A stretch of 63,251 nucleotides of DNA, counting the filler, from Thraustochytrium aureum (Eukaryota), in NCBI GenBank assembly GCA_012862495.1. It is 5 parts of 4 records of this genome, joined end to end, with 100 filler letters (N's around TTAATTAATTAA, not from the genome) between each part and the next. Parts side by side here need not be neighbours in the genome. Positions count along the whole stretch, not along the records: positions 21,501 to 37,116 come from BLSG01000080.1; 4 more parts are not named here. The stretch is one strand, 5' to 3'. This document shows positions 24,756 through 60,111 of the stretch, piece by piece (position 1 is the first letter of the stretch; the number at the start of each line of letters is the position of its first letter). A model generated the notes under the pieces. It ran no database searches and was not told the DNA's origin. It was given only the letters and a program-made list of their open reading frames with translations. Made by a program: the position numbers and the translations under genes.

Positions 24756-26249
24756 AGCAGGCACTGCGGCAGCCGTGCTTTTGCGGCTTGGCTTGGTGGG
24801 GCTTTGAATCAACCGCGTTGACGTGAACTGACTGCCCGCCTCGCGGCGGGACGGACTCCGTGTTTCTTGGGGCTGGGCCTGTTCCCTTCGTTTTCTCTCC
24901 TTTGTTTGCAGCCCCGAAGGCTCCGGCCGCGTTTGATGGGAGAAAAGAATCACAAACCCACATGCTATATCCGATTGCTTTGACTCTTTTTAGCTCGGGA
25001 GAGCCTGTATGTTTTGCACGCGTTGTGTCGAGCTCGCGCTCGCCACGGCACACTTCCGCAGTCATGCCTTGGCGAGAGCCTCGAGTTCGCACACCACGCG
25101 CTTTTCTGCAGCCCGAATGAGTCCGAGCTGAGCGCCGGGGAGANNNNNNNNNNNNNNNNNNNNNNNNNNNNNNNNNNNNNNNNNNNNNNNNNNNNNNNNN
25201 NNNNNNNNNNNNNNNNNNNNNNNNNNNNNNNNNNNNNNNNNNNNNNNNNNNNNNNNNNNNNNNNNNNNNNNNNNNNNNNNNNNNNNNNNNNNNNNNNNNN
25301 NNNNNNNNNNNNNNNNNNNNNNNNNNNNNNNNNNNNNNNNNNNNNNNNNNNNNNNNNNNNNNNNNNNNNNNNNNNNNNNNNNNNNNNNNNNNNNNNNNNN
25401 NNNNNNNNNNNNNNNNNNNNNNNNNNNNNNNNNNNNNNNNNNNNNNNNNNNNNNNNNNNNNNNNNNNNNNNNNNNNNNNNNNNNNNNNNNNNNNNNNNNN
25501 NNNNNNNNNNNNNNNNNNNNNNNNNNNNNNNNNNNNNNNNNNNNNNNNNNNNNNNNNNNNNNNNNNNNNNNNNNNNNNNNNNNNNNNNNNNNNNNNNNNN
25601 NNNNNNNNNNNNNNNNNNNNNNNNNNNNNNNNNNNNNNNNNNNNNNNNNNNNNNNNNNNNNNNNNNNNNNNNNNNNNNNNNNNNNNNNNNNNNNNNNNNN
25701 NNNNNNNNNNNNNNNNNNNNNNNNNNNNNNNNNNNNNNNNNNNNNNNNNNNNNNNNNNNNNNNNNNNNNNNNNNNNNNNNNNNNNNNNNNNNNNNNNNNN
25801 NNNNNNNNNNNNNNNNNNNNNNNNNNNNNNNNNTTGCCTGCCTGCCTGCCTGCCTTCTGCGCGCGGCTTGTCCAGTCGTGGCACGGCGTGCTCGTGGCTC
25901 GGGTTGCTGTTGGGCGACTGTTGCCATCCGCATTCGCATCGAGGGCTGTCGCGTACGGCACACAACAAAGATGAGAGGCGCGAGCATTTCTCGCCAGATT
26001 TTTGTGCCCCGACCGCGAGCGCCTGTGAGCGCCGCCGCGCAGAACGACACTGATCGCTTTGCCGTGGTGCGCTTCAAGACACCGCGGATCGTCTCATATC
26101 CCGGCCAGAGGAAAGACCGAATTGCATGAGAAGAGCGACTTGCGATCGACTCTTTCCTCGCCGCTTCGCACTTTTGGCTGGCTGGCGAGCAAGAGCAGTG
26201 GGAAGGAAAAGTATCGCCGGGCCGCGTGCGAGCGCTTTGTCGTGATCGC

Positions 26250-26943: not shown

Positions 26944-29139
26944 CTACTGGCGACGTCGGAGGGCGCGCTGCTTTGTGCGCATGAGCTCCACGAAGCCGCC
27001 CTGCGCGTCGTCGAGCTCGTCCAGGACTGCGACACAAGACAGCGTGTTGCTGTCTTCAAGCCAGCTGGTCCGCGTGAGGCGACGACGGCCCATTGTATGG
27101 ACCAAGCAAATCGCCGAGCCCTTGGCAAAGGCGCGCTGCGTCCACGAGCCGGAGAGCGCCGTGAGGATCGGCAAGTGCATCCCGAACGGCCGCTCGACAT
27201 TGTCGAGCTCGACGGCAACAACGCCGTTTGAGAGCAGTTTGCGACGCAAGCGCGTCAAGAGCACGCGCCCGCGCTGCTCGATCTCAAACTCACCCTCCAT
27301 AAACTCGAGCATCTTGCCCAGCACCCAAGGCACGCCGCAGAGCGCGCGCATCTCGAGCATCGCTTCAGCCCCGTCCAAGGTCTGCGACCATCGGCCAGAG
27401 TGGTCCGGCAACGCGCTGCTGCATTCTTGTGGGCGCATTCCAAACGGCAACCACGACGTCGCGTCAGATCTGGCACTCGGCGACGATCGCAGGCCCAGGA
27501 ACGCCGCCGATGAGGCCGCAGCAAGGTCCCAGGCAGTGCGCTTTGAACGCATTAGGCTCGAGAACGCGCCACAAACATCTTCGAAACAAAGCCTTGAACG
27601 CCACGACGCGCCGCCGCTCTGGGAGCGCTCGGCAACTGCCTTTGTGGGAGTCGGAGGTAGACCGCTCCCCAGAGCAGCGCATAGGTCGGGCACGTCAAAG
27701 CAGCCCCGATCGCTGATGGCGGCGTCGGTGGTGTCCGAGACAGGCGTCGGGCAGGTGTCGAAAACCGAGTCGAATTGGTCGAGCGTTAGCCCGTGCCTGT
27801 CCAAAAAGCCTTGCACGTTTCGCTCCAGCACGGCCACAAAGGTGCGGTACTCCTTCGACTTGCTCATGCGCGGCGAACTGCTCAGCTCTAGTGCCTGAAT
27901 GGACCGCGTAAACCCAGTTTCTCGCAGGAGGTACCCAGCCAGGTCCCGAACGATGTGATCCTTATTGAGCGCCTCCGGGCAAGCTCCGATGGCCCATGCC
28001 CCAGCAGCGTCGCGGCGAAAGGTCTCCGGCCACGAATGCGCATTGTGCGAGGCCTGGTCGGGCTCAGTGTCCAGCAAGCCCTCCAAGCCCAGATCCGCAA
28101 CAGAGTCCAGCATCAAGCCGGGATCGTCGGCGCCGTTAGAGGCAAACAGGTCGATGCACTCCGCGAGCGAGCTCGCGAAAAGGTCGACGTCGTCGGCTCC
28201 GCTCCTCGCAAGGCCACTCTCGCGACCGCCTGTGTACTCTTCCAACTCAAGGCCCGCCCCAGTGTCTCGCTCATGTGCCCGCCCGGGGAGGCTCAGCTCA
28301 AAGCTTTCGTCGGGGCCCAACTTGGCAAGCATGGCTGCCACGGCGCGCAGCATCGAGTTGAGGCGGCGGGCGTCGATTCGGGGCCGCGCAAAGCACTTGC
28401 GTTTCTTGTTCGCAAGGGCTTCCCGCTCCGCCGGTCGCTTGCTTGCGCTCGGCCTGGCTTGGTTTGGCGGGCAGATCGGCGCGGTGGGCTCGACCTTGAA
28501 CCGGCGGCGGCGACGGCAAAACAGCATGAACGCAGGAGATCGTTCCACTGCCCGACACACCAGCCTGTCGCGCGGGTTTCCCTCCCCGGTTTCGTGCGGG
28601 CTCTCGAAAATGTACACCTGGAGGCAATGAAACGAGTTGCACGTGTGCTTGTTTGAAGTCCAGCCGTAGTGCCATCCCTTGTGGTCCCGATTCAGCTCGA
28701 AGGTGAGCGCCTTGACAGTTTGCGCGGACTCCGAACGCTCGCAGGGCGGTTGCGCAGCCGAGACACGGTCGCCGCGAACAAAGGGTTTGGTCGGCTCCTG
28801 CTTGCTGCGGTCAAGCTTGCAAACTTGCGAGAAGCTCACGACGTCGCCAACGCTGAGCCCGGGGGCCGACTTGACAGGGACAAACTCGGCGCGGCACACG
28901 ATGCGGCTTGGGTTTACTTCGTCCGCGAGCTCGACGCTCACCAAGACCGGCCGTCCGCAATAGCCTCGCTCTCGATGCTTCTCCGCGCAAGCTGGAAAGC
29001 AGCGCAGGTTCTTCAGCCCGCCGAGCTTGTTGTTCCGCTGGTACCTGTCATTGAAGAGCGCTGTTTGGAGCTTGACGCGGACCACAGCGGCGCCCGGCTC
29101 AGTGGCGCCGGTTGCGAGCTTAGTAAGCTGGCTCGCCAT
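26944..29139 (-). CDS. 731-aa hypothetical protein: N-terminal Cys/His + beta-rich putative DNA-binding domain, acidic middle, C-terminal FABP/calycin-like domain
   Basis: Uninterrupted ORF from MASQ (ATG 29139). It contains YQRNNKLGGLKNLRCFPACAEKHRERGYCG, WHYGWTSNKH, SPAFMLFCRRRRR and KKRK, and ends with PDHSGRW..LCGVPWVLGKM..FEIEQRG..TRTSWLEDSNTL. The CDS is well supported; the domain calls are inference. Confidence 0.75.
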   Translation of the reverse strand: MASQLTKLATGATEPGAAVVRVKLQTALFNDRYQRNNKLGGLKNLRCFPACAEKHRERGYCGRPVLVSVELADEVNPSRIVCRAEFVPVKSAPGLSVGDVVSFSQVCKLDRSKQEPTKPFVRGDRVSAAQPPCERSESAQTVKALTFELNRDHKGWHYGWTSNKHTCNSFHCLQVYIFESPHETGEGNPRDRLVCRAVERSPAFMLFCRRRRRFKVEPTAPICPPNQARPSASKRPAEREALANKKRKCFARPRIDARRLNSMLRAVAAMLAKLGPDESFELSLPGRAHERDTGAGLELEEYTGGRESGLARSGADDVDLFASSLAECIDLFASNGADDPGLMLDSVADLGLEGLLDTEPDQASHNAHSWPETFRRDAAGAWAIGACPEALNKDHIVRDLAGYLLRETGFTRSIQALELSSSPRMSKSKEYRTFVAVLERNVQGFLDRHGLTLDQFDSVFDTCPTPVSDTTDAAISDRGCFDVPDLCAALGSGLPPTPTKAVAERSQSGGASWRSRLCFEDVCGAFSSLMRSKRTAWDLAAASSAAFLGLRSSPSARSDATSWLPFGMRPQECSSALPDHSGRWSQTLDGAEAMLEMRALCGVPWVLGKMLEFMEGEFEIEQRGRVLLTRLRRKLLSNGVVAVELDNVERPFGMHLPILTALSGSWTQRAFAKGSAICLVHTMGRRRLTRTSWLEDSNTLSCVAVLDELDDAQGGFVELMRTKQRALRRRQ

Positions 29140-29809: not shown

Positions 29810-31630
29810 CTACAAGTCGGTCACGTTGTGCGTCAAAAGCCACGAGGAACAGTACGACTCGCGCATCCCGGCGTCCCGCAGCTTGGTGCAGCTGCACAGA
29901 GGCCGATTCGCGCAGCCAGACAGGTCGTCCACGCCATCCCCTATACTAGCCACGATCATGCAAGCAAACCATGTGCACCACGAGGCGAGCATCAGCGCCT
30001 TGAAGATCGACCTCGGCCAAGGGATCTGAAGCTTCAAGCCCAAAATGCGCCGCTCGCAGATCAAGCACGCGCAGTCGACGATAAACTCTGCGACGAACTG
30101 AATCGCTGTGCTAATCATCACGAGCCCTGGATCAGGTACCCGCGGGCCGGCGTCGTCCACGAACAACCGGAGCGGGAGCAGGAACCGCGCGTTGCTGTAA
30201 AGCATAATGATGGCCGGCGCCATGAAGATGCCGATGTACTCGCTGAGGCTCTCCCCGCAGTACATAAATGCCCAAAACTCGCGCTCCTCGTAGCAGGGCT
30301 TGAGCTTCACGAGCCGGCTGGCGGCCTGAGCGATTTCAGAGACTCTACTCCCTCGTGAGGTGGGGCTACTGGGTCCTGCGCCGCGCTCCGTGCCTGCCAC
30401 GGCAGAAGGACGAGTTGGGGAGACCGGCAAACGCAACGGGGGCCCATCCACCGTTGGTTGCTTTGGCATTCGCTCCGCTGGTGCTTGCTCTGCGTTGTGG
30501 CCCTGCTGCTGCCGACGCGGCTCGTCCCCGCCAGCGTCAGTAGGAGCGGCGTTGTCACCTATCGTCGGCTGTTGGCTCGCAAGATCGGATGGGGCGGCTC
30601 CTGGCGCTGAAGGGGACACTGATGCGTCGCGAGCGAGCCCCATCCACGAGAGGCGGCGACTGCGCTCCTCCGGCGCAGGCTTGCAAACAAGCCAGAACTG
30701 GAGGTTGTGGAAGATTTCGGAGCGGATCGGTTGCGAGAGTCGCGTGGCAATCTCGATCACACTTTGGAGCCCCACCACCGCGCTGATCGACACGGACGTG
30801 TCGAAGCGCGTAAGGAGCAGGCGCAGGAGGAGGCTGCTCGTCACCTGCGCCCAAAACATGAACGCGACTGCCACACTTCGACGCAAGTCGCTGTTCAAGG
30901 GGCCGGCCACCACGCGCTTCGCGAGAAAAAGTTTTTGGGCTGCAGACCGACACACCGTGTACATGACCTCCCGGTAGACGGAAAAGCACGTTACCAGCAG
31001 TACAAACCCGCTGTCCGAGAAATCGATCGTCGTCATGACCACAAGGAACGCGAGGCCCAGGATGATTCCGAAGATCTGCAGCATCATCTGGACGACGACA
31101 ATGTTGCGATCAGGCAACTCGAGCTTCAACGCCAGCGTAAATGCAATCGACGGAAAGAGCCCGGCGATCACGTGAAGGCTGCTGTTGACGGCGAGCAGCC
31201 TCAATCCATATGCGCAACCGGTTATCGCTGAGATCTTGATTACCATTTTGAGCGGTGCTGCCAGGTAAGCAAACGTGCAAACCGGAAGAAACATGACGAG
31301 CGGCACATCCCAATGCACAGATCGCAACAGGGACTCTGGCGTGGGGTACACATTCACATACGCGGTGGCGTTCCCCGCCTCGAGCGGATCACGAGGCGAA
31401 ATGCGCGGCCATGGGCTGTATCTGTGCGGAATCCAAAACACCACAATGGCGGCGCATGATGGAATGAATGAAAGCGCAATCAGCCACAGCGTGTGCTTGA
31501 CCGCGCCAAGCGCATCGGCAAACACGGTGCGGGCAACCAGCGACGTGCCTTTGGCGATGTTTGTTGAAGTGGTCGCTATGGACTTGCGCCTTGCCGCAAG
31601 GTTCGCCCCCCCCTCGCCTGCGGCTCGCAT
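29810..31630 (-). CDS. Multi-pass membrane protein of unknown function
   Basis: Long ORF from MRAAG (31630) with many hydrophobic segments, a long Pro/Ser-rich loop and a Cys-rich C-terminus. Confidence 0.75.
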   Translation of the reverse strand: MRAAGEGGANLAARRKSIATTSTNIAKGTSLVARTVFADALGAVKHTLWLIALSFIPSCAAIVVFWIPHRYSPWPRISPRDPLEAGNATAYVNVYPTPESLLRSVHWDVPLVMFLPVCTFAYLAAPLKMVIKISAITGCAYGLRLLAVNSSLHVIAGLFPSIAFTLALKLELPDRNIVVVQMMLQIFGIILGLAFLVVMTTIDFSDSGFVLLVTCFSVYREVMYTVCRSAAQKLFLAKRVVAGPLNSDLRRSVAVAFMFWAQVTSSLLLRLLLTRFDTSVSISAVVGLQSVIEIATRLSQPIRSEIFHNLQFWLVCKPAPEERSRRLSWMGLARDASVSPSAPGAAPSDLASQQPTIGDNAAPTDAGGDEPRRQQQGHNAEQAPAERMPKQPTVDGPPLRLPVSPTRPSAVAGTERGAGPSSPTSRGSRVSEIAQAASRLVKLKPCYEEREFWAFMYCGESLSEYIGIFMAPAIIMLYSNARFLLPLRLFVDDAGPRVPDPGLVMISTAIQFVAEFIVDCACLICERRILGLKLQIPWPRSIFKALMLASWCTWFACMIVASIGDGVDDLSGCANRPLCSCTKLRDAGMRESYCSSWLLTHNVTDL

Positions 31631-37160: not shown

Positions 37161-37172
37161 TTAATTAATTAA
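37161..37172. other. Artificial scaffold linker TTAATTAATTAA
   Basis: Same 12-mer between N runs. Confidence 0.97.
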
Positions 37173-37216
37173 NNNNNNNNNNNNNNNNNNNNNNNNNNNN
37201 NNNNNNNNNNNNNNNN

Positions 37217-37811
37217 CTTCAGCGGGCTTGGCCTTGTCTTCGATAATTGCGGCAAGGCCTTGCATGGTCGTGTCGAAATTGGTCGTTAGCTCTTGGAAGA
37301 GCTCTTGGCACAGCCTAAGCCCGATCTTTCCTTTCCAATTCCTCTGGTTTTTGAGTGACTCTGAAGCCACGAGAGGAACGATGCGGCCATACTTTTGGGC
37401 GAACGCGTATTGAAACTCGCACTGGCAATTATCGTCCTCATCTCCATCATTAACCTTGCGGTGGTATTCATCCGTGAGCAGCACAATGACGACGCTTGCG
37501 CTTTCAATCGCATTGGCCATAGCAGCATCAATCTTGCCGCTTGCAAGACATTTGCGGTCATACCACACCTCCCAGCCCTTCTCGCGCTCCATCCAGGCCG
37601 AGGCCTCGTCCACGATCGTCTTGGTTGACTTTCCGTTGACGGTCGACTTCCACTCGTACGAGATCATGATCCTCAGCGGCCCTCCATCGCGCGCCGCGTC
37701 TTCCTCTTGCTTCGGTCCCACGACCACCTGATTCGCCTCCTCAACCTGCGGCGCTGCGCTCTGCTTGGCTTCCCCGCGCCCGCCTGTCTTTTTGCTCACC
37801 CAGCGCATCAT
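37217..37811 (-). CDS. N-terminal TIR (TIR_2-type) domain protein, C-terminus truncated by the scaffold edge
   Basis: IMISYEW, GWEVWYD, MANAIESASVVIVLLTDEY, NCQCEFQYA, IVPL, W.GKIGL.L are TIR_2 hallmarks. Confidence 0.88.
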
Positions 37812-54580: not shown

Positions 54581-57500
54581 CTAAGAGGGAAGGGCAGCGG
54601 GTCCGCGGCCTTGGCGGCGTTGGTCCGTGTACATCGGGTTGGAGCACTCGAGAAACTCCTCCTCTTGGCCCTCACCCGCCCCGCCGAGGCTCTTCGAAAA
54701 GCAGATCAAGTCGACACCTGGCCTTGCGAAGCTGTCCTCCTCAAAGCCAAGCGCGCGGTGGAACTCGACGGGGACGGCGTACCCGCGCGGAATCATAACG
54801 CGTACGAACTGGCACTCCCTGCCTCGCGCAAGCGCAAAAACTTGCCGTACAGACGGCGGCCGATGCCCTGGCGCCGCGCCTGCGGCAACACTGCGCAGGC
54901 CGCAACGAGCCCGATCGAGCATGGGCGCGGGCCGCCGTTCTGCAGCTTGCCACAGAGATAGCCGTCGATTTCGCCGTCCGAGTTGCGCGACACAATCGCA
55001 AACTCGCAGGTGTCGTCCCAGAGTTTGCGCGTGTGCTCCGGGATCCAGTGCGGGGTCGCGTTCGGGTCTGGCTTGCCCTGCGNNNNNNNNNNNNNNNNNN
55101 NNNNNNNNNNNNNNNNNNNNNNNNNNNNNNNNNNNNNNNNNNNNNNNNNNNNNNNNNNNNNNNNNNNNNNNNNNNNNNNNNNNNNNNNNNNNNNNNNNNN
55201 NNNNNNNNNNNNNNNNNNNNNNNNNNNNNNNNNNNNNNNNNNNNNNNNNNNNNNNNNNNNNNNNNNNNNNNNNNNNNNNNNNNNNNNNNNNNNNNNNNNN
55301 NNNNNNNAGGCTTACGCCGAAGTGGACGCGGTTGACAGACTTGCGCCGCTTGGAAAAGACCGACTTGAGGATTCCCTTCTTCGCGTGCGACCCCGACGAC
55401 TCGTTGCTGGCCACCGTGGACACGGAGGGGCGCGCGGAGATGGAGGGGCGGAAATGATTGGCGTGGCCAGCGGCGTGCCCGCTTCCATTCGAGCCGTAGC
55501 GGCCGCGCGAGTTCGCTGGCTCTCTCAAGTCTGAACCCGGGGCGGTCGAGGCGCTGGCCGTTCTTTGGCTGGGGCCCGGCTCGTGGGCGTGGCTGGTGTC
55601 GGCCTCGCCGTGTTTGCCTTGCAGCTCGTCGATCTTGTACTGGACGCGATAAATCCACTGCATGCGCAACTCATCGCTGAAGGTCGCAAAGGTGAATTCG
55701 CGAGGGTCGGCTCGCGAGCGGCCCTTTTTCTCCCAGGCCGTCGTGTAGATGGTGAAGCAGAACAACGTGTCGGAGACCTGGTGCACGCTCTCGATAGAGA
55801 GAGTCCCCGCCGGCTCTTTGCGGATCTGGGACTTGCTGTTTAGCTTGACCACTTCCAAGCGCTTCTCGTTGCCCTCCTCGTACGTCTGGACGATCTCGCT
55901 CGCCCTGATGTCTAGCGTGCACCAGCGCGGTTTCCAGGGCTTTTGCGGGTTGCGCGAGTTTTCCTTCTTTACGAATAGATGACCCGAGTGGTTGAGCATG
56001 AGCGCCTCCCCGGCCCGGCTCAGGTACTCGTTCATCGTCTCCGCGTCTTGCTTGGCAATCTCCTCGTTCTTGCGCTTGTTGAGCTTGAGCTTTTGCTTGT
56101 TGGTCATCCGCTTGCGAAGCACCTCCACCATCCACCCGCTCTCAAAGGTATACTCTACTCTGTCCGCAGGGCGCTTGCGCAACTCGCTGCCGTGGGACTT
56201 GCACTTGATAATAAAGTTGGACTTGACCAGCTCGTCGAAATCGGTGTCCACGCTCTCGGTGGGAATTGCGAGCGGGAAAATGGCCTTGATCGTGCGCAGG
56301 GTGAACACCTCGCCGATGATGGCAGCCACCTTGATGATGAGCTGCTGGGTAAGCGACATTTTGTCGATGATGGAGCCCACCATGCTCTCCATGGAAAGCG
56401 GAATGGGCAGGTCGTGCCGTTTTCGGCGTTCCTCAAACTCGTTCGAGGGGAAGAAGAGCTCCGGCCCGGGCGAAGTGCGCTTGGCGATCAAGCCCGCGTC
56501 CAGAAACGTCCGAACGGCGTCCGAGACGTAGAGGGGGTTGCCCTTTGTCTTGCGCCGCAGGAAGGCGACGAGCTCGTCGGGGACGCGGTCGACGTTTGCA
56601 AAATTGCAAATGATATCCTTCGTGTCGGCTGTCGACGGGTGGAGCTCAAGGTAGGTGACGACTGAGCTCGCCTTCATCGCCTCGTGCACCAGAATGCTGG
56701 TCTCGACATCGTCGAACTGCGAGACGCCGCCCTTGAGCTGCGACTTGAGAAGCGAGGTGGACTTGTGCGCGGGGCGGAAGACCGAGACGCGGTTGCTTCC
56801 CCCGCTCGCAGCCCCTCCCACGTTGTCGATGACGCGGCGCTCGATGCGGATCAGGCGGTGGAGGAGAATGATGAGAATGCTAGACCTGGTCCAGTTCTCG
56901 GCGAGCTCCTGGAACACGAGCCAGGAGAAGGTGTCCATGTAGTGGCTCTCGTCCACGACGAGCACGACNNNNNNNNNNNNNNNNNNNNNNNNNNNNNNNN
57001 NNNNNNNNNNNNNNNNNNNNNNNNNNNNNNNNNNNNNNNNNNNNNNNNNNNNNNNNNNNNNNNNNNNNNNNNNNNNNNNNNNNNNNNNNNNNNNNNNNNN
57101 NNNNNNNNNNNNNNNNNNNNNNNNNNNNNNNNNNNNNNNNNNNNNNNNNNNNNNNNNNNNNNNNNNNNNNNNNNNNNNNNNNNNNNNNNNNNNNCCCTCG
57201 GCATACCATCAAACAGGTTCTCGCTGCTTACTCCGAACATGGAGGTCAGGTTCTTCACGCGGCTCACTTTGCTGCCCGCAGCAGGGGTCTGGCCGAGGCT
57301 CGTCGCAGGGGTCGCAGACCGCAAACCGTCTGCGGAGGCGCCCACCACATTCTTCGACTTTGCGATCTTGCGTGTCTTCTTCGTGGCCTTTTTGGCGACG
57401 TCCGGGCCTGGGGGCTGCGGCGGGGCGGCGTCGGCCCCGCCGAGGCCGTCGCTCGGCTCTTCGAACTGCGTCATCAGGATCTTGTTGAGCTTGTAGAGGT

Positions 57501-60111
57501 CGTCAACGGAGAGGTTTCTGTCTGCCCGCGCCCCGTGCGCGCTCGCTGCGGCGAGGGGTGCGGCGGCGGCGACGGCCTCGCGCAGCTGCTCCTCTTTCGA
57601 AGCGCTTGACTCGGGCGTCGATCCCTGGGTTTCCAGGTCGGATTCTGGCGAGATGCTGAGAAGGGAATTGATCGGGTGCTCCCAGATCGCAAAGGGGCGC
57701 GCGTTGCGCCCAGTCTCGAAGGGGTTTCCCCGCCCGTAGCCAAGGAGCACCTCTTCGTCGAGGCTCTCGGTCTCGCTGAGCAGAAAGGACTCGACGAGGC
57801 GCGACTTGCCTACGCCGTGGTCGCCGTCCAAGAGGACGGTTTTGCCCCCCTTCCCTGACGCGACCTCGTCATACGCTCGAGCCAGGCAGTCGCGCACGTA
57901 CGCAGCCGAGCGGAGCTCTTGGTCGGCTTGGTCGGCGGCGTCAGGCGCGTAGCCTCGCGGTGTGCTGTACTGCACGAGAAGCAGGTTTATCCGGCCGAGG
58001 CTCCAATCGTGCGCGATCGTGTTGAGGAGCTGCGAGGGCCGGAGAGTGACGCGCTCCGCGCCGCGCATCCACACGAGCTCGAAGAGGGAGTAGTCCTCTC
58101 CGGCCTCTTTGGTGACCAAGCCCTTGCTGACGGCCTTGGCGAGGACGACTTTGAGCATGTCGTGCACTTCCTGACTGACTCCTCGAGAGACGCGGTGACG
58201 CTGGTCTTTTGCTCGTCGACAGAGGGCCCGTGGCGGCCGCTCTGCGTCACCGCGCGAGGAAAGAAGGTGAAGACCACCAGTTTGCTGGCCTCCCGCGAGG
58301 CAGACCTCCGCGAGGCCGACTTGCGCGAGGCCGACTTGCGCGATCCGTTGGCGAGGAAGCTGGACGTGGCGGCTACAAGCTTGAGATCGTGGCTTTCCGC
58401 CACAGCCGCGCCGCTGCTCTCGCTGCTCGTGCTCGCCACCGGGGTGCGCCCCCGTCGAGCATCAGCGCGGCGGCCCAAGAAGCCGACGCTGTTCATCGCC
58501 TGGACCTGGCGCTCCTCAATGCGCTTCATGTCGTTGGGGTTGGAGACGACAAGCTTTGTGCCGCGGCGGCGCGTCTTCTGGCGGTACTTTGGCGACTGCG
58601 AGTTGAGAATCCGGCCGTTCTTCTTGGAGATGCTCGTCAAGTGCGACTGGTGCATGCTGTGTGGGTCGGAGCTGGTGCCTATTGCCGCGATTTGGTAGCA
58701 CTGCACGGGCTCGCGCTTGCCCTTGACGGCGATTGTGATGGGAATGAACTCGAACACGGTGTTTTCCGCGCCGGTCTTGGTGGAGCGGTCCATGAGGAAA
58801 TTGGACGACAGTGTCTTCGCGGTGCCCATGAGGCGCGCGGCGAGGTTGACGGTGTCCCCAATGACAGAGTACTCGCGGCGGTTGCCCGCGGCGTGGCCGA
58901 TGATCCCGCAGAAGGCGAGGCCCGTCGAGATGCCTACCGAGCCTTTCAGCCGGTACTTGCCAAGCATCCAGAGGATCTTGAGCGCTGAGAGGATGCCGCG
59001 CAGCGGGTCGTCCTCGTGCGCGATGGGTGGGAGCCCGAAGACGGCGATCAGGGTCGAGCCCTTGCGTCGAGAGGCACTTGTTGATCGTGCCCTCGTAGCC
59101 CAGGAGGATGCCCTGGATCTCGTAGAACACCTGCTCTAACTTTTGCGAGTTTTGGCCCGTGCCGAGCTCCTCCGCGTCGAGGCCAAGGTCGACGAAGAGG
59201 GTCGACACGATACGCAGCTCGGGGGCCCAAAACTCGTCGTTGGTCTGCACAAGGTACGGCATGACCGCGTTGGGGACGTACTTCCAGAGCTTGCGCTCCG
59301 TTTCGTTGTTGCTGGGCACGGTGCGGTCGAAGGTCCGCCATGGCACGCGGTCCGAGGCCTTGAAGGACCTCACCGTGACCGTCTTGGCGTTAGATTTGAC
59401 CGGAGCGAAGGGAACAAAGTGCTCGCCGACCATGTCCCAGATTGCGCGGCTCACGACCACCTCGCCCTTTTTGGCCATTTTTTCGCTTTCGATGGCCTCC
59501 ATGAGCGCGGGCCCAAGCGCGACGTACTCGAACCTCTCGCGCTGGATTTGGTCTGCGTTGCCCCCGAGGTACATGATGTGGAGCAGGCCAATGCCAAGTC
59601 CTAGTTTGGCCTCCAGCTCGCCCGAAGCGATCCCGCCAGATTCCTTCTTGGGGTTTGACGGAACAGTGACGATGTCCTCGTACTCGCTGTCCTTGGCGTA
59701 GACGGAAAATTTGAAGCCTTTGAGCTGCTCCTGGATGTCTACCGCGCACTGCACTGCGCGCTGCACGCGCAGCTCGTAGTCGCGCGGGTCGTTCGGGTCT
59801 ACCTCGGGCCACAGCGCGAGCATGGCGTCGCCGGCGAACTTGAGCACGTCTCCGCCGGCCCGCGTCGTCAGCTTGACCAGCTGGGTCACGAACTTGTTCA
59901 AGTTGGTTGAGAGGTCCTCTAGCCCGTTGGGGCCCAGCTCGCAGAGCGTCTCTGTCAAGCTAGTAAACCCTGCCACGTCTGCGAACAGGCACACGGTCTG
60001 CAAGGTGCTTGCATCCGGCTTGGAGGTCCCGTTCGGCTGTCGTTTGCTCTCTGCGACGGCCTTGGCCACCACGGCCGGCAAGTACAGCTGGAGGCTCTGA
60101 AAGTCTCTCAT
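54581..60111 (-). CDS. Soluble adenylyl cyclase (ADCY10/sAC-type, two class III cyclase domains) + RA-like + STAND P-loop ATPase + PH + probable C-terminal GNAT; several frameshifts and two gaps
   Basis: C1: FADVAGFT, VLKFAGDA. C2: FVDL, GTINK..(V)DDKG..FGLPP.AHEDDP.R, GISTG.AFCG, RREYSVIGDTVNLAARLM. Walker A GDHGVGKS, Walker B VVDESHYMD, GNPLY. PH: GHLFVK..WKPRW..F.F...ELRMQWI. Frameshifts near 59065, 58175 and 54838. Confidence 0.88.

Follow-up and report, generated by a model that had tools for sequence, protein, structure and literature searches.

Several regulators combine a DNA-binding domain and a lipid pocket in one component, among them nuclear receptors, the HD-Zip START proteins and the fungal factors Upc2 and Oaf1. 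The barrel of the fatty-acid-binding proteins (FABPs) is mostly an animal fold, and FABP5, FABP4, CRABP2 and C. elegans LBP-8, which share it, act on nuclear receptors in trans. We know of no transcription factor (TF) of the velvet, Rel or NFAT type that carries a lipid-binding barrel and, to our knowledge, lipid sensing at the level of transcription is an open question in thraustochytrids and oomycetes. Here we describe a gene of Thraustochytrium aureum (record BLSG01000080.1 of GenBank assembly GCA_012862495.1), which lies within a joined stretch of 63,251 nucleotides that was analysed as a whole (the window) and along which all positions are counted. Its 731-amino-acid (aa) product joins a predicted immunoglobulin (Ig)-fold domain of DNA-binding type to a predicted FABP-type barrel, and we consider it, at a probability of roughly 0.45, to be a ligand-modulated, one-component nuclear TF of an undescribed stramenopile family. 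As a rough estimate, the protein is very probably a DNA-binding factor and its barrel a likely binder of a hydrophobic ligand, and that this ligand regulates output is, overall, a tentative proposal at slightly less than even odds.

By inference from this arrangement, the protein would resemble a nuclear receptor in logic, or FABP5 or LBP-8 fused to a receptor, and would stand outside those families. A nuclear receptor has a C4 zinc-finger DNA-binding domain and an all-helical ligand-binding domain, whereas an Ig sandwich and a beta-barrel are predicted here, and the protein has no Pfam match to a C4 finger, homeodomain, Zn2Cys6 cluster, helical ligand-binding domain or START domain. In contrast to the FABPs, which are stand-alone proteins of ~130 aa, the barrel is the C-terminal domain of a 731-aa protein; it shares its chain with a DNA-binding-type domain, is ~25 aa longer than the known iLBPs and is without their Arg-x-Tyr motif. 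The preliminary description knew of no factor with this architecture, and we likewise found no description of the family or the architecture in the freely accessible literature searched. That claim is softened by human THAP4, which, according to the available text of two sources, has an N-terminal DNA-binding-type zinc domain and a C-terminal all-beta barrel (PMC6275384; PMC13631171). THAP4 is a loose precedent for a DNA-binding-type domain with a C-terminal 10-stranded barrel, made of other parts: its zinc domain is a C2CH THAP fold, for which our protein has no Pfam match, and its barrel is a heme/NO-binding nitrobindin that compares with ours at Z 7.0 and a root-mean-square deviation (rmsd) of 4.4. 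In the text available, DNA binding by THAP4 lacks direct demonstration (PMC13631171).

Two predicted domains in one chain

Translation recovers all the motifs that had been quoted for an uninterrupted 731-aa open reading frame (ORF): YQRNNK (aa 33-38), KNLRCFP (aa 43-49), WHYGWTSNKH (aa 156-165), SPAFMLFCRRRRR (aa 201-213), KKRK (aa 245-248) and G582-x-W584 with the other C-terminal segments. The features are as follows.

26944..29139, minus strand: whole ORF, 731 aa, stop-free, apparently intronless
28465..29091, minus strand: N-terminal domain (aa 17-225; net charge +14), predicted to be a beta-sandwich with an Ig fold of the p53/Rel/velvet class
28993..29046, minus strand: loop joining core strands 1 and 2 (aa 32-49), basic/polar and near-invariant
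28957..29001, minus strand: C47-x3-C51-x3-H55-x5-C61 knuckle, candidate zinc site
28627..28677, minus strand: GWHYGW...KH...H segment with conserved histidines (aa 155-171)
28501..28539, minus strand: last strand S-P-x-F and basic tail (aa 201-213), candidate second DNA-contact element
28396..28407, minus strand: KKRK (aa 245-248), candidate monopartite nuclear localisation signal (NLS)
28312..28377, minus strand: conserved amphipathic segment H1 (aa 255-276), putative helix by its pattern
27967..28311, minus strand: acidic region (aa 277-391), candidate activation region
28144-28185, minus strand: hydrophobic-acidic, amphipathic motif (aa 319-332) inside the acidic region, kept in many alignment rows
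27754..27966, minus strand: conserved middle domain M (~70 aa, aa 392-462), helical by pattern
26947..27414, minus strand: predicted C-terminal barrel of FABP/iLBP type (aa 576-731) that has a helix-turn-helix lid; G582, W584, D646, P657, H681 and R690 are conserved

The AF2 model of the N-terminal domain, made from an alignment of 125 sequences, is a beta-sandwich (predicted local distance difference test, pLDDT, 89.7). When it was compared with 48,161 representative chains, the top eight matches were NF-kB (four entries), VosA, VeA, TonEBP and RBPJ at Z 7.2-6.0, led by NF-kB p52 (Z 7.2, rmsd 4.0, 139 aligned) and including VosA (6.7), RelA (6.5), TonEBP (6.2) and RBPJ (6.0); TF domains make up 13 of the 29 listed rows at Z of at least 5.0. 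The first 28 rows of a second structural comparison are all velvet, NFAT, STAT, T-box or MYRF, and Foldseek ranked velvet first (E 0.0015) and p53 next. Meanwhile, an Atlas query with the N-terminal domain of the homologue P0002 gave velvet and STAT as structural matches and LAG1 as a feature match (0.79, a lead only). The sandwich is thus predicted to be common to the velvet factors (VosA/VeA/VelB) and Rel/NF-kB/NFAT (Z 5-7.2), with CSL, STAT, T-box, MYRF/Ndt80, Runt and p53 more distant, and the closest likeness of the predicted domain is to p53-like DNA-binding domains with an Ig fold, chiefly those of NF-kB/NFAT and velvet. A p53-like Ig fold had been proposed for this domain; its best structural matches are indeed TF domains, all at Z below 8, rather than a known non-DNA-binding fold. 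Since these scores are middling, they support the fold class more firmly than they do any single family.

Conserved residues of the domain fall where a factor of this class would touch DNA. The near-invariant R35, N36, N37, K38, K43 and R46 all sit after strand 1 (R35 is kept in 124/125 sequences, N36 in 122/125, and K43 and R46 in 125/125), and the position of the aa 32-49 loop, judged by sequence position and predicted secondary structure, is that of loop A of velvet and NF-kB. In VosA, as far as the available text of the source goes, the DNA-binding residues lie in the strand 1-2 loop and a second basic loop lies near the C-terminus (PMC3876986); our protein is alike in its basic strand 1-2 loop and in the basic tail after its last strand. 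By analogy, the aa 32-49 loop is likely a DNA-recognition loop. The last strand and basic tail, in which F204 is kept in 122/125 rows and at least two K/R occur within aa 209-213 in 110/125, are likely a second DNA-contact element. Unlike velvet and Rel, with which there is no detectable sequence similarity, the family carries a Cys3His knuckle of its own in loop A. C47, C51, H55 and C61 are jointly kept in 123 of the 125 aligned relatives, a pattern that likely denotes zinc binding. In addition, the aa 155-171 segment, with H157 (117/125), H165 (106/125) and H171 (125/125), may provide additional contacts to metal or DNA. A K[KR]x[KR] motif between the N-terminal domain and H1 is present in 41/53 full-length relatives, against 10/53 in a control downstream linker of similar length. 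Two relatives carry additional domains, P0053 an AP2 and a Myb domain and P0030 a CW zinc finger.

The C-terminal domain, modelled by AF2 from 22 sequences (pLDDT 90.3), consists of strand A, two helices and a meander of strands; nine strands have at least three residues, strand E has two, and a short helical insertion of ~12 residues lies between strands E and F. A wide structure search gave UnaG (Z 14.4), CRBP4 (14.1) and LBP-8 (13.9), its top 10 rows being FABP-family chains plus a luciferase barrel; FABP5 aligned at Z 15.2 (rmsd 2.7, 133 aligned), and FABP5, FABP4, CRABP2 and LBP-8 share the predicted fold at Z 14-15. Foldseek returned 78 matches at E <= 0.001, those listed being FABP, CRBP or CRABP. 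The support from sequence is weak: two family profiles reached iFABP at E 0.0077 (12 of 16 PDB matches FABP/CRABP) and E 0.018 (13 of 18), each over the first ~50 residues only. The AF2 model and the structure searches thus agree with the C-terminal FABP-like barrel of the preliminary description, and an FABP-type barrel is predicted. The helix-II RK pair of the family consensus aligns with that of FABP5, in which, according to the available text, it is part of a ligand-activated structural NLS (PMC6620326); T. aureum has G608-K609 instead.

Among 65 non-redundant barrels (79 matches de-replicated at 70% identity), the G-x-W motif of strand A has its G582 in 63 and its W584 in 56; R690 is kept in 52 and H681 in 32, and position 728, at the end of the last strand, is R or K in 35 of the 50 rows having a residue there. 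R690 and H681 share the alternation register of the hydrophobic inward positions, and therefore they probably face the cavity. The positions of Arg-x-Tyr are mostly Gln-x-Ala in the family. As for stand-alone relatives of the barrel, a shared-word search of shorter proteins, which leaves their absence unproven, returned one 118-aa partial barrel only.

The middle of the protein had been called acidic and of low complexity. This holds for aa 277-391 (D/E 22%, net charge -19), a candidate activation region; the middle also contains the conserved H1, the aa 319-332 motif and domain M, which was found in 50 of 161 family proteins. Pfam BART (PF11527, ARL2-binding) faintly matches M in one protein (23.3 bits, cut-off 23) and in 1 of 12 segments, and BART chains are absent from the 39 PDB profile matches of M, which we assign to no family. 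Matches of M to TAL repeats, TFIIF, SUMO, Fas and ELMO1 were rejected as chance helical or repeat-summed. Docking of aa 250-470 onto the barrel scored 0.01 with the alignment unused, which gives no evidence either way.

Coding evidence and neighbouring genes

The guanine-plus-cytosine content at codon positions 1/2/3 of the 731-aa frame is 0.64/0.51/0.76, and of the 28 single-base differences that four related public runs show within it, 20 are synonymous, where a fraction of 0.25 would be expected (p = 2e-7); on both grounds the ORF is beyond chance. Shifted-frame and opposite-strand ORFs across the gene were set aside, as homology and the synonymous bias track the 731-aa frame. One contig of 2,168 bases, from a run tentatively taken to be RNA, spans positions 26954-29121 without a gap. 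Since this contig is colinear, the N-terminal domain and the barrel are on one piece. The flanks of the gene are uncovered by that run and covered by a DNA run. The contig gives a weak hint of an intronless transcript; it comes from one study, the RNA nature of whose runs X2 and X3 is a guess. In addition, diverged contigs in related runs match two motif blocks only, a sequence pattern that suggests paralogues in the same organism.

Other proteins encoded in the window include eIF3a, SYF1 and myosins. Upstream of the gene lies an ORF of 606 aa (29810-31630, minus strand) with many hydrophobic segments, a Cys-rich C-terminus and no Pfam match. An ORF with a TIR_2 domain is located at 37161-37811 (minus strand), and adjacent ORFs with weak matches to guanylate/adenylate cyclase and AAA_16 are found at 56851-58967 (minus strand). 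The window contains 23 runs of N (e.g. 25144-25833), none of them inside the gene, and the ORF list is inflated by these gaps.

Relatives in thraustochytrids and oomycetes

A search with aa 1-230 yielded 30 relatives among 1,198 candidates. In metagenomes, 87 matches were confirmed, and 80 loci from among them were retained. When 45 domain sequences were combined into a profile, it reached 1,396 clusters at E <= 0.001, 298 of them at E <= 1e-30; the best 150 of the 1,396 were examined, and the architecture counts are therefore biased towards close relatives. Named members belong to the thraustochytrids Mucochytrium and Hondaea and to the saprolegnialean oomycetes Aphanomyces, Achlya and Thraustotheca. 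Rather than being special to one oleaginous protist, the gene thus belongs to a multigene family that extends to oomycetes. The closest relative found is P0002 of Mucochytrium (53% identity over the N-terminal domain). None of the 30 pattern matches on viral contigs is a relative.

The N-terminal domain family has no match in the Pfam copy scanned. When the N-terminal domain of P0002 was used to query the Atlas, unnamed oomycete clusters came first and PF28397 DG1062_N (Pfam 38) third among the feature matches, at 0.89 with 181/256 features, which is below the 0.9 bar and a lead only. The DG1062_N annotation sits on 50% of a mostly haptophyte Atlas cluster, and no paper on it was found; the family may overlap with it.

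The four-part layout of the protein is conserved. By hidden Markov model (HMM), the barrel was detected in 67 of the 161 family proteins, 48 of which also have M. In a tree of the N-terminal domain (FastTree, midpoint root, weak deep support; P0032, P0142, P0006 and cluster-member duplicates omitted), proteins with a barrel turn up in most of the deep clades, and an ancestral fusion with repeated loss therefore fits better than a recent fusion. The oomycete proteins missed by the HMM end in a C-terminal G-x-W domain. Five Achlya/Thraustotheca segments aligned with the barrel profile over 125 columns at a score of 30.1 (probability 51%), against a maximum of 15.1 in 30 column shuffles. Meanwhile, the Atlas model of the Aphanomyces barrel resembles lipocalin/FABP models with a template modelling (TM) score of 0.57 by query and 0.79 by target. 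Oomycete members carry a divergent version of the barrel, and the layout is likely common to two major branches of the stramenopiles. Part of the bacterial GerE/LuxR-type helix-turn-helix proteins of an Atlas cluster of 667 also matches the oomycete barrel in structure (TM 0.57, 130 residues); they have a helix-turn-helix in place of the Ig fold, and the likeness, which comes from predicted models only, possibly reflects a parallel design of DNA-binding-plus-barrel regulators.

Some members depart from this layout. The last ~50 residues of the barrel-less P0111 and P0155 are hydrophobic and transmembrane-like by eye, and these proteins could be membrane-tethered like MYRF and SREBP. The oomycete proteins P0033 and P0034 contain the complete N-helical-barrel unit more than once (3 and 2 copies, respectively), either as true tandem proteins or as merged models of neighbouring paralogues. 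A subfamily of P0060, P0064, P0073, P0076, P0081, P0087, P0095, P0100 and P0154 has a longer barrel, and its M is replaced or extended by a longer conserved pre-barrel region with no Pfam match. P0016 bears the label Batrachochytrium salamandrivorans BASA81 and groups within labyrinthulomycete-type sequences; a labelling error or a contamination of the assembly is a likelier explanation than membership of a fungal protein. Two apparent fusions were excluded: P0006, whose first ~600 residues are those of P0005 too, continues into a kinase, and P0036 continues into NAD-binding and Ku80 domains; each has the look of a chimeric transcript or a merged model.

Ligand control and its alternatives

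In the mechanism that we propose, the Ig-fold domain, stiffened by its Cys3His zinc knuckle, would read DNA in the manner of velvet and NF-kB, with contacts made by the strand 1-2 loop and by the basic tail after the last strand, and KKRK would direct nuclear import. The barrel would take up a fatty acid or a similar anionic lipid through its helical lid, and R690, with H681, may hold the head group of the lipid, replacing the missing Arg-x-Tyr. Ligand occupancy would reset the conserved lid and portal loops, and this change would release or recruit the helical modules H1 and M and the acidic region, thereby switching activation or partner binding. The preliminary description had assigned the lipid control over DNA binding itself. 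That claim is less well supported than one in which activation or localisation is controlled, because the barrel is ~350 residues away from the N-terminal domain and 94 of the 161 proteins have no HMM barrel match. The same distance, together with the many barrel-less paralogues whose DNA-contact residues are intact, suggests that DNA binding is autonomous, and the barrel probably tunes activation, partner binding or localisation instead.

Several results weigh against a ligand-modulated TF. For the N-terminal domain, Foldseek gave no match at E <= 0.001, and all Z scores are below 8, a range in which the tool warns of a mere common arrangement; a beta-galactosidase Ig domain equals TF domains at Z 6.0. 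The domain also lacks a sequence link to known DNA-binding families in the Pfam and PDB searches: the Pfam families RHD, velvet, CSL, STAT, T-box, Runt, NDT80 and p53 had no match in the 45 domain sequences at E <= 1, the domain profile had no PDB match to the named Ig-fold TF families at E <= 10, and single-sequence searches of PDB and Pfam found nothing. The barrel has no Pfam lipocalin match at E <= 1, no FABP is among the five matches of a first, smaller full-length profile, and for the Aphanomyces barrel by itself the alignment to the labyrinthulid profile is unconvincing (probability 3%). Arg-x-Tyr, the head-group motif of FABPs (P2, last strand), occurs in only 1 of the 65 barrels; according to the available text of one source, several true FABPs are also without its Tyr (PMC6620326). 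Many of the proteins with no barrel match are short and may be fragments or divergent, so that the barrel is either dispensable in many paralogues or lost in fragments. Moreover, the fold proves no function, as the same barrel serves as a luciferase or a bilirubin binder.

Part of this evidence would also fit a TF whose barrel is a ligand-free scaffold for dimerisation or co-factor docking, or in which a bound lipid is purely structural. The most conserved barrel residues include those of the lid helix and portal loops (P604, W605, K609, M614, K634, L635 and P657), which could form a protein interface, and Arg-x-Tyr is missing and the barrel undetected in many paralogues; however, a conserved arginine and histidine in the inward register are hard to explain without an anionic ligand, and the complete lid-plus-barrel geometry is retained at an rmsd of about 2.7 Å. 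We regard such a scaffold as rather unlikely. The ligand of a regulated TF could also be something other than a fatty acid, such as a sterol, a carotenoid or retinoid fragment, a bilin, heme (cf. THAP4 nitrobindin) or a signalling molecule. This would suit the replacement of Arg-x-Tyr, mostly by Gln-x-Ala, the E-F insertion, the CRBP and UnaG scores, which equal those of the FABPs, and the retention of H681 in about half of the barrels. It is a quite improbable reading, with the THAP4 nitrobindin at just Z 7.0 vs 14-15 for FABPs, sequence matches to iFABP and FABP5, and LBP-8 binding fatty acids despite an incomplete head-group motif in the available text (PMC6620326).

Doubt about the N-terminal domain leads to another alternative, in which it is a zinc-stabilised beta-sandwich that binds RNA or protein and the whole is a cytoplasmic lipid-handling adaptor. 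Non-TF Ig domains do attain Z 5.5-6.0 in a search where all values are below 8, the TF families have no sequence link to the domain, and M faintly matches the ARL2-binding BART family. Nevertheless, the best matches in three structure searches are strongly enriched in TF domains, the basic loops are invariant at both DNA-contact positions, the NLS motif is enriched and one relative also contains AP2 and Myb domains, and we consider a cytoplasmic adaptor more improbable still.

The family and its architecture are real and, in the literature searched, undescribed. With a defined pocket residue (R690) and DNA-contact residues, the family is a direct candidate for a lipid sensor, and an FABP-type barrel is thereby placed inside a protist regulator. 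Even if the idea of a ligand fails, a large family that is invisible to profiles would be added to the p53/Rel/velvet superfamily. Annotation-based TF censuses would miss such a family; that of P. infestans, for instance, started from Gene Ontology-annotated genes and has 22 families, and the words "velvet" and "immunoglobulin" are absent from its available text (PMC11267843). In the widest and more doubtful view, to which we give clearly less than even odds, these proteins would form an ancient, expanded family of lipid-gated TFs in stramenopiles, which arrived independently at the logic of nuclear receptors, is older than the divergence of labyrinthulomycetes from oomycetes, and governs lipid metabolism or development in these lineages.

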